Assembly: GCF_000026545.1 (NCBI RefSeq)
Contig: NC_011601.1
Length of the DNA: 64,000 bases
Strand: one strand, 5' to 3'
Source of the DNA: Escherichia coli O127:H6 str. E2348/69
GTDB lineage: Bacteria > Pseudomonadota > Gammaproteobacteria > Enterobacterales > Enterobacteriaceae
Part shown: in pieces, positions 18,367 to 19,725 of the stretch
Layout of the letters: every line of letters begins with the position of its first letter
Position numbering within the stretch: the first letter of the stretch is position 1
Position numbers and translations under genes: made by a program
Notes under the pieces: model-generated
What the model saw: the letters and a program-made list of their open reading frames with translations, nothing else
Told to the model about the DNA's origin: nothing
Database searches by the model: none

Positions 18367-18393
18367 CCCCGAAGCCTGGCTTCGGGGTTTTTT
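18367..18393. terminator. Bidirectional intrinsic terminator between ygaM and the MocR-like gene
   Basis: ccccgaagcctggcttcgggg hairpin followed by a T-run. Confidence 0.6.
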
Positions 18394-19725
18394 AGCTTAA
18401 GGCTTTACGTAATTGTTGTGCTACCTGTCGCGCCATACCTTCGTTAACGATATTAGCAAACGAAAGCAGTAATCCACCTTCCCCACTTGAACGGATACGC
18501 CAGTCGCTAAGTGCCTGCACCGCAAGGCCTGCAGCATTGGCTTTACGCGCATGGGCAATATCATCGCCTATCATTCTGATCACCATCTGGATACCACCTT
18601 TCTGCGGCACAACCTGAAATCCTTGCTGCGTCAACGCTTGCTCAATCCATTGCCGACGTTGAGCATAATGCTGACGCATTTTCTTCAGATGCCGCCAGAA
18701 ATGCCCCTCGCGAAGAAAGTCTGCCAGTGTGTTCTGCCATAGAACAGGTACCGCACATGGAGCCAGTGACGCCTGGTGGCGGAATTGTGCAATTTGCTTC
18801 ACCGGCACCACCAGCCACGCACAGCGCAATGCAGGAAATAGCGCTTTGCTGAATGTTCCGGCATAAATTACCCGCTGCGGTGCGTCGAGACTTTTTAACG
18901 CCGGTAACGGCTTACCGTGATAGCGAAACTCACTGTCATAATCATCTTCAATAATCCATGCCTGACTACGATCTGCCCATTCCAGTATCTGATGCCTGCG
19001 CGCTAAAGAGAGCGCCACACCCAGCGGACTTTGGTGTGCTGGTGTTATCAGGGCAAAACGCGCATCAGGATAATTTTGTATTCCGCTTGTGATATCCAGT
19101 CCATTGTCATCAACCGGCACAGGCAAAATTTCCACATCATGGCGAGTGACAATCGGGCGAATCAGTGGAAAGCCGGGATCTTCTATCCACATCCCGTTTC
19201 CCGGTTTCGCCAGCGCGTGCAGAATTAAAGCTATTGAGGCCGCATAACCGTGAGTGATAAAGACCTGCTCTGGCTGACAATCAATCCCACGTGAAACGCG
19301 TAAGTAATCAACTATTGCCTCGCGCAACGCCGCCTCACCGCAGACATCGCCTAACGCCAAATCAAAGCGCGTCTGGGTACGAAGGCGACGCCCCATCACC
19401 CGCGCCCACAGCTCTCGCGGAAAGAGATCGAGTGCGGGTAATCCCATTTGAAATGGCAACGGTTGCTGACTTTCACCGGCAAAAGCTACAACTTGTACAG
19501 TAGATTGTTGCGGATATATCCGCTCACTGACAAATGTGCCAGCCTGTCCCGCCTGATCAGCCATCCTTGCGCCACCAGCTCAGCATACGCATTTTCGACA
19601 GTGGATCGAGACACCCCCAGCTCCTGCGACCAGGTACGACTTGAAGGCAGCCTTGCGGCGGGTTTCAGTTCCCCTTGCTCAATAGCCGTTTTTAACTGAC
19701 GGGCGATATCCTGATAGCGCGGCAT
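18392..19725 (-). pseudogene. MocR/GabR-family regulator (GntR HTH + PLP aminotransferase-like domain) split by a frameshift
   Basis: HTH part (19486..19725, MPRYQDIARQLKTAIEQGELKPAARLPSSRTWSQELGVSRSTVENAYAELVAQGWLIRR) and aminotransferase-like part (18392..19564, begins ..QAGTFVSERIYP) are in different frames and overlap; junction lies at the C-run near 19546..19552. Confidence 0.6.

Follow-up and report, generated by a model that had tools for sequence, protein, structure and literature searches.

The regulator gene and its lesion

The stretch of DNA analysed here, called the window throughout, comprises 64 kb of enteropathogenic Escherichia coli (EPEC) O127:H6 strain E2348/69. Between ygaM and nrdH it carries a gene for a regulator of the MocR subfamily and, facing away from it, an intact gene for an AhpD-like protein of the carboxymuconolactone decarboxylase (CMD) family. 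The regulator gene is 1334 nt long, as against 1335 nt (444 amino acids, aa) in intact alleles. It is very probably a genuine, inherited pseudogene, in which a GGGG run at codon 60 of a 444-codon MocR-type gene has been shortened by one G in an EPEC lineage that includes E2348/69. The main features of the two genes, in which HTH stands for helix-turn-helix and ORF for open reading frame, are as follows.

18392..19725, minus strand: MocR-type regulator pseudogene, labelled 'frameshifted' in RefSeq and recognised by alignment to the intact UTI89 allele
19486..19725, minus strand: 79-aa ORF with the helices of a GntR winged HTH (codons 1-59) and a 20-aa out-of-frame tail
18392..19564, minus strand: 390-aa ORF with the wing remnant, the linker and a fold-type-I aminotransferase-like effector domain with an FSK motif (K294, numbered as in the intact protein)
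19548..19550, no strand: 1-bp deletion site, with CCC in place of the CCCC of intact alleles (GGG and GGGG on the gene strand, codon 60)
19813..20244, plus strand: intact CMD-family gene of 143 aa, with matches to Pfam CMD, TIGR00778 and PA0269 and the motif E37-x11-C49-x-x-C52-x3-H56

The 79-aa and 390-aa ORFs are two frames of a single 444-codon gene and overlap by 79 nt. Pfam GntR matches the shorter (E 4.2e-15) and Pfam Aminotran_1_2 the longer (E 1.8e-26), and the intact homologue in the uropathogenic strain UTI89 is one 444-aa gene (WP_001138429.1). An earlier note on this DNA had described a MocR-family regulator split by a 1-bp frameshift, with the HTH and the aminotransferase-like domain in ORFs of different frames. 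Both ORFs lie at the coordinates listed above, and the description is borne out by the ORFs, the Pfam domains and the alignment with UTI89. The earlier note had also suggested a comparison with intact E. coli orthologues, and in the UTI89 alignment exactly one 1-bp deletion appears as the sole indel within the regulator gene. On the gene strand, the sequence around codon 60 reads AGG CGG GGA CAG in the intact allele and AGG CGG GAC AGG in the window. The intact protein sequence ...AQGWLIRRGQAGTFVSE... becomes ...AQGWLIRR followed by DRLAHLSV... and a stop codon, while QAGTFVSE carries on in the other frame, as (G)QAGTFVSE; this matches the junction that had been proposed (AQGWLIRR / QAGTFVSE). 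The proposed single-base indel thus stands as a single-base deletion, but the G/C homopolymer said to occupy 19546..19552 does not, since these positions read GTCCCGC and the run that has changed is the CCC at 19548-19550. Beyond the frameshift, the window differs from UTI89 by two amino-acid substitutions, G23A and T421A, and a second 1-bp difference lies outside the regulator gene, right after the ygaM stop codon.

The frameshift falls where, in the winged HTH, the wing sets in (GQAGTFV). Helices 1-3 are retained in the 79-aa product, which has lost the wing and the whole effector/dimerisation domain, while the 390-aa ORF contains the aminotransferase-like domain that binds pyridoxal 5′-phosphate (PLP) and no DNA-binding domain. 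Because the split products cannot form a DNA-binding dimer, the regulator of E2348/69 is non-functional. Its two domains are encoded on separate polypeptides in the window, and on a single one in UTI89, Nissle, O157:H7 and every other genus that was examined.

Positions 18300-20460 of the window are 100% identical to three RefSeq assemblies of E2348/69 (NZ_CP059840.2, NZ_LT827011.1 and NZ_LT903847.1), and a wider stretch of 5161 bp is identical to the first two, in which RefSeq, through the Prokaryotic Genome Annotation Pipeline (PGAP), already labels the regulator gene 'frameshifted'. In an exact comparison over 201 bp, the allele with three Cs (C3) was found in only four of 5426 complete E. 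coli genomes, namely the three E2348/69 records and B1.H1.1. The exact 79-aa product is also present in NCBI drafts that name E. coli DEC2B, DEC2D and 2362-75 as their source, together with several SRA and ENA assemblies, and the exact 390-aa product, which only the frameshifted sequence can encode, is recorded on 165 contigs. At the DNA level, C3 occurs in GCA_000249095.2 and GCA_000249135.2, each with three other single-nucleotide polymorphisms (SNPs) relative to the window over 5.2 kb, and in the draft GCA_000183005.2. The DEC2 strains and 2362-75 are O55:H6 EPEC1, the sister serotype of O127:H6. Since the same C3 allele is shared by independent drafts with SNPs of their own, the deletion has been inherited within a lineage. 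The gene is disrupted relative to intact orthologues, and the disruption is reproduced in independent assemblies and isolates, which is what defines a pseudogene here.

B1.H1.1 (NZ_CP146571.1; locus L004, positions 1945-3278) is an unrelated wastewater isolate with the same 1-bp loss and six other sites that differ from the window. Apart from the deletion, its allele is the intact allele found in many genomes, and for this reason the case is regarded as a private mutation or a record error: the loss either arose a second time, independently, at the G4 run or is an error of that single assembly.

If the frameshift were a sequencing or assembly artefact, the strain would have an intact gene. The site is indeed a short G/C run, and the loss in B1.H1.1, a singleton on a common intact allele, could well be such an error. 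However, the three E2348/69 assemblies that agree here were deposited separately, C3 recurs in independent drafts of other isolates as well as in metagenome and SRA assemblies, and a run of 4 nt is not a typical error hotspot. An artefact is highly improbable, and on assembly-level comparison an assembly error can be regarded as effectively excluded.

The split could also be functional, with the HTH and sensor acting as separate polypeptides, or the full-length protein could be restored by ribosomal or transcriptional recoding or by a phase-variable run. Both ORFs are long and overlapping, the downstream one has an ATG start, and the deletion is present on two allelic backgrounds. Against this, the gene is one uninterrupted reading frame in all orthologues, which come from at least 10 genera; the winged HTH has lost its wing through the break, and it is the C-terminal domain that mediates dimerisation. 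AAGG directly abuts the internal ATG of the 390-aa ORF, a poor spacing for initiation that leaves no usable Shine-Dalgarno arrangement. All lineage assemblies examined at the DNA level carry C3, with no mixed run lengths, and switching by slippage would need a much longer run than G3/G4. On these grounds recoding, phase variation and a functional split were all rejected, and this family of explanations is extremely unlikely. The inherited pseudogene is a lineage-specific frameshift that was already in public annotation and is otherwise ordinary.

In GCA_000183005.2 (2362-75 by its source names; locus L021, ADUL01000053.1, positions 3366-3635), unrelated sequence takes the place of the 3′ part of the pseudogene close to the end of a contig, and homology to the window stops at window position 18861. 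This may be a further disruption, a rearrangement or an assembly join.

Distribution and ancestry of the gene pair

Pfam matches identify the flanking ORFs in the window as AlaE, DUF2002 (ygaC) and DUF883 (ygaM) on one side, and nrdHIE downstream. The boundaries of the segment that distinguishes this locus from K-12 are the following.

18365..18389, plus strand: ygaM terminator hairpin, 2 nt from the regulator stop codon, marking where, on the left, the segment absent from K-12 begins
18391..20270 (approximate), no strand: regulator and CMD cassette absent from K-12-type E. coli, with its right edge within the hairpin at 20254-20271

Cassette counts were taken as match counts over the 5426 complete genomes. 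The 3′ part of the regulator gene is kept in 1387 of them and the 5′ part also in 1276; the whole cassette is absent from about 4039 (74%). The difference between the first two counts (1387 minus 1276, about 111 genomes) corresponds to a 588-bp deletion (window 19139-19726) by which the regulator loses its N-terminal half, as in NZ_CP053245.1 (SCU-485) and NZ_OZ121072.1. It ends at the regulator start codon and leaves the CMD gene intact. The cassette is present in most B2 strains (UTI89, S88, Nissle and ATCC 11775 among them) and in O157:H7 (about 92% identity), and absent from K-12 and from ST131, the latter although it belongs to phylogroup B2. An intact copy of the regulator is kept in most B2 genomes and in O157:H7.

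The two E. coli lineages represented by UTI89 and O157:H7 differ markedly here. Their ygaM genes (window 17995-18336) encode an identical protein, but DNA identity is only 93.6%. The regulator proteins share 92% identity, close to the 90% identity with E. albertii, and for the CMD gene DNA identity reaches 97.7%. For a single species, divergence at this locus is unusually deep.

The gene order alaE-ygaC-ygaM-[MocR<->CMD]-nrdHIEF is also found in E. albertii, E. marmotae, Citrobacter amalonaticus, C. koseri, a C. freundii-group genome, Klebsiella aerogenes, Yokenella and a locus labelled Salmonella by its source. The pair is followed by proVWX in place of nrdHIEF in Kluyvera, and it adjoins a ygaC homologue in Leminorella. 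Sequences from E. fergusonii fall in the same 90% protein cluster. The regulator/CMD pair is therefore ancestral in Enterobacteriaceae and has been lost from most E. coli, including K-12.

Beyond the right edge of the cassette, the homology of the window to K-12 stays weak until about position 20337. In the K-12 derivative C600 (locus L008, positions 693-769, compared with window 18391-20337), the ygaM terminator runs straight into what is left, in degenerate form, of the right arm of the hairpin downstream of the CMD gene, and the ygaM-nrdH spacer of K-12 has the appearance of a scar from a 1.9-kb deletion (approximate size). The synteny across genera, together with this hairpin remnant at the junction, indicates that the deletion carried by K-12-type E. 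coli is the derived state, and insertion or horizontal acquisition of the cassette was rejected on the same two observations. The earlier statement that in K-12 ygaM is followed directly by nrdH was correct, as the two genes are 247 bp apart in C600. The description of the pair as accessory relative to K-12 holds as a statement of presence and absence, and fails if taken to mean acquisition, since by synteny the pair is ancestral and the K-12 deletion derived.

The CMD partner, the regulator family and the intergenic region

The CMD-family protein scores 75.4 bits with Pfam CMD (PF02627; cutoff 23; E 3.5e-21) and 54.9 bits with the AhpD core domain model TIGR00778 (cutoff 27.8), and the AhpD-like gene that had been proposed beside the regulator at 19813..20244 is confirmed by both. 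It aligns end to end with Pseudomonas aeruginosa PA0269 (PDB 2O4D/2IJC/7XW1; E 3.6e-31 to 2ijc/2o4d). Residues 37-56 (ELVYLRVSQINGCAFCLEMH) contain the proton-relay motif E37-x11-C49-A-F-C52-x3-H56, in agreement with the pattern Glu-x11-Cys-x-x-Cys-x3-His, and four of the five relay residues of PA0269 are kept, Tyr50 being replaced by Phe. The protein is an AhpD-like member of the CMD family, with a putative thiol-dependent peroxidase or AhpC-reducing activity. PA0269, the only protein of the kind to have been assayed, shows weak, Cys-dependent reduction of H2O2 in vitro (PMC3141380). The Salmonella partner gene STM2804 has been described as 'with no known function' and was used in mouse competition experiments as the place to insert a marker (PMC3723669); this study was the only match in a literature search by orthologue locus tags. 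A search for MocR together with carboxymuconolactone decarboxylase found no papers, and no experimental study of this regulator or its orthologues was found in the literature search.

A GC-rich hairpin followed by A7 lies downstream of the CMD stop codon (window 20254-20282), and no canonical terminator is present between the CMD gene and nrdHIEF, 208 bp downstream. The hairpin itself (20254-20271) was considered as a terminator and rejected because it is followed by A7 and not by a T-run. Read-through from the CMD gene into nrdHIEF is conceivable.

In the intact regulator a GntR winged HTH is joined through a linker to a fold-type-I aminotransferase-like domain, the architecture of the MocR subfamily. 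Its FSK motif (K294) aligns with that of Bacillus clausii PdxR (7pq9), in keeping with the PLP-lysine of the subfamily. Among NCBIfam models, the intact allele scores 407.1 bits with the PdxR equivalog NF052282 (PLP_TF_PdxR; cutoff 320), above its cutoff, 354 bits with the rhizopine MocR model (cutoff 650) and 261 bits with the GabR model (cutoff 600). In a search of solved structures, B. clausii PdxR (7pq9) is the best match with 216 bits, and B. subtilis GabR follows with 188 bits. RefSeq naming of the gene is inconsistent, older PGAP records having 'PLP-dependent aminotransferase family protein' and newer ones 'pdxR: MocR-like pyridoxine biosynthesis transcription factor PdxR'.

The PdxR scores, on the NCBIfam model and on the solved structure alike, could indicate a true PdxR that controls the synthesis or salvage of vitamin B6 (PLP) and whose loss would affect B6 metabolism. 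The rhizopine-MocR score is nearly as good, however, and because it lies so close to the PdxR score the NCBIfam models discriminate poorly here. Linkage to genes of PLP synthesis or salvage (pdxST, pdxK) was not found, and the divergent partner conserved in every genus, and in all 12 taxa examined, is the CMD/AhpD-like gene. PLP in E. coli is made by the PdxA/PdxJ route and, to our knowledge, the species has no pdxST, both of which count against a true PdxR. The orthologues STM2803 and CKO_04020 have been placed in a group of their own, apart from the PdxR groups and with COG2128 as its only target, and PdxR2 and PdxR3 exist separately in C. koseri (PMC5320631). A true PdxR is distinctly unlikely. 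The genomic context gives no support to the name pdxR, and the PGAP name 'PdxR' is probably an over-call that rests on a hidden Markov model score alone.

That group was named 'Spro_3719 - Enterobacteriales' by Suvorova and Rodionov (2016), with COG2128 (the AhpD family) as its only predicted target and C. koseri CKO_04020, S. Typhimurium STM2803, K. pneumoniae KPN_03002, Enterobacter Ent638_0497, Pectobacterium ECA2654 and Serratia Spro_3719 as members (PMC5320631, supplement). Since the group and its target are listed there, the regulog has already been described in silico. The orthology of these locus tags to the window gene is suggested by species, target and, for STM2803, gene numbering. 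The group resembles the present locus in its architecture, in its single predicted target (COG2128/PF02627), in the position of the pair beside nrdH at the same chromosomal site in C. koseri and the Salmonella-labelled locus, and in the commonest MocR operator layout, with a pair of direct boxes plus an inverted one. The differences are that the window copy is frameshifted and that K-12, the sole E. coli of the 2016 study, lacks the pair. The only MocR-type factors counted for K-12 in that study are YdcR and YjiR (PMC5320631). These two (b1439 and b4340) belong to the same subfamily and species but lie at other loci, are not orthologous and have ylaC-type PF10777 and COG5457, respectively, as predicted targets.

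COG2128 occurs in 53 MocR regulons overall, and in P. aeruginosa the member of the group 'PA0268' regulates COG2128 and COG1917 (PMC5320631). The PA0268/PA0269 pair is like the pair described here in that a MocR-type regulator is predicted to control an AhpD-like COG2128 gene, and PA0269 aligns over its full length with the CMD protein, which keeps the Glu, Cys-x-x-Cys and His of the relay. In contrast, PA0268 belongs to another orthologous group, its regulon adds COG1917, and Tyr50 of PA0269 is Phe in the window. B. clausii PdxR (7PQ9/7ZLA) and B. subtilis GabR (4N0B) also align over the full length (216 and 188 bits, a remote match), share the FSK motif and form divergons with an operator between regulator and target. 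By analogy with them, autorepression and effector-dependent activation are likely (PMC5320631, introduction), although their targets are pdxST or gabTD and not an AhpD-like gene.

The intergenic region between regulator and CMD gene is 87 bp long. In a cross-genus alignment it forms a block that is near-invariant in 12 taxa, though the regulator proteins are only 68-92% identical. Three conserved boxes and the predicted expression signals can be recognised in it; box positions in the list are counted from the CMD transcription start predicted near 19784.

19726-19735, plus strand: operator box C, ATGGTCTGCT, -58..-49, abutting the regulator start codon; ATGGTCT invariant in 12 taxa
19750-19759, plus strand: operator box B, ATGGCTCTCT, -34..-25, overlapping the CMD -35 position; ATGG core invariant in 12 taxa
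19762-19771, minus strand: operator box A, ATGGACTGCT (plus strand AGCAGTCCAT), -22..-13; CCAT invariant
19772-19777, plus strand: predicted CMD -10 element TATAGT, with TATAG invariant, the sixth base T in 11 of 12 taxa, and no good -35
19770..19775, minus strand: predicted regulator -10 element TATAAT, invariant, overlapping the CMD -10 by 4 nt
19801-19805, plus strand: Shine-Dalgarno sequence AGGAG of the CMD gene, invariant

Boxes C and B form a direct repeat with 24 bp from start to start, a spacing that is gap-free in the 12 taxa, and box A is inverted relative to both, falls within the spacer of the predicted CMD promoter and abuts or overlaps both -10 elements. Exact matches to ATGGWCTGCT in the window number only two (boxes C and A), against 0.22 expected. 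A composite pattern of the invariant positions occurs exactly once in each of 16 cassette-bearing loci, and was absent from the K-12 locus and from the locus with the 588-bp deletion. A repeat scan seeded at 6 nt missed the three boxes, which emerged only from the cross-genus alignment. A pair of direct boxes plus an inverted one, with a conserved TGG, represents the commonest MocR operator layout, found in 32% of regulons (PMC5320631), and the three boxes are a predicted operator of the typical MocR kind. The predicted regulator transcription start lies near 19763; the leader would then be about 38 nt long and lack a clear Shine-Dalgarno sequence. At and around 18.3-20.5 kb, scans for Rfam families and tRNAs gave no hits.

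Elsewhere in the window, Rfam matches at gathering score are STnc490 (38362-38485, minus strand), MicA (39129-39200, plus strand) and isrC (58568-58690, minus strand). At 41978-42570 on the minus strand, four tandem tRNA-Arg(ACG) genes with a 140-bp period are followed by tRNA-Ser(GCT).

Proposed regulation and meaning of the loss

The intact regulator would bind the three ATGG-containing boxes in the 87-bp region that it shares with the divergent CMD gene. It would repress its own transcription, a prediction based on the location of all boxes at or downstream of its own predicted -10 element. The direct boxes C and B sit where a class-II-type activator would, on a predicted CMD promoter with a good -10 and no -35, and in a geometry like that of GabR and PdxR the direct pair may mediate activation of the AhpD-like gene in response to a putative effector. 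The inverted box A could provide an alternative mode that is non-activating or repressing, as described for B. clausii PdxR. Under this scheme, the intact CMD gene of E2348/69 would have lost its effector-responsive control and inducibility, and the promoter of the pseudogene would be derepressed.

Two observations weigh against this scheme. A simple consensus promoter scan called neither -10 element, as neither has a matching -35, and the CMD gene is still intact both in E2348/69 and in the 111 genomes with the 588-bp regulator deletion. The persistence of an intact CMD gene in regulator-null lineages speaks mildly against strict dependence on an activator, unless the regulator was lost recently or basal expression suffices, in which case it could be reconciled even with an obligate activator.

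The loss of the regulator could also be adaptive (pathoadaptive or niche-adaptive) rather than neutral decay. There have been several independent inactivations in E. coli, namely the EPEC frameshift, the 588-bp deletion (111 genomes) and the loss of the whole cassette (about 4039 of 5426, including ST131), and the CMD gene stays intact in the first two. A dispensable gene would equally be expected to be lost repeatedly, however, and most B2 genomes and O157:H7 keep an intact copy. There is no known phenotype, and STM2804 of Salmonella has been treated as a gene without known function and used for marker insertion (PMC3723669). An adaptive loss is therefore unlikely, and it is quite improbable that the regulator is a recurrent target of selection in E. 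coli, by which an AhpD-like thiol enzyme directly upstream of the stress-induced nrdHIEF would be rewired. Selected loss, if true, would tie a PLP/amine signal to oxidative-stress physiology.

To the regulog described in silico, the present analysis adds the corrected polarity at the locus (K-12 lost the pair), a lesion inherited across isolates of the EPEC lineage, an operator footprint that extends across genera and a caution over 'PdxR', an automatic name that is probably misleading here. As a lineage marker for the E2348/69-type EPEC clone the lesion is useful; otherwise it matters little. K-12 represents the derived state at this locus, having lost a divergon that is conserved across Enterobacteriaceae. 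The model EPEC strain E2348/69 is without a regulator that its B2 relatives keep, and experiments on the AhpD-like gene in that strain are therefore run in a regulator-null background.

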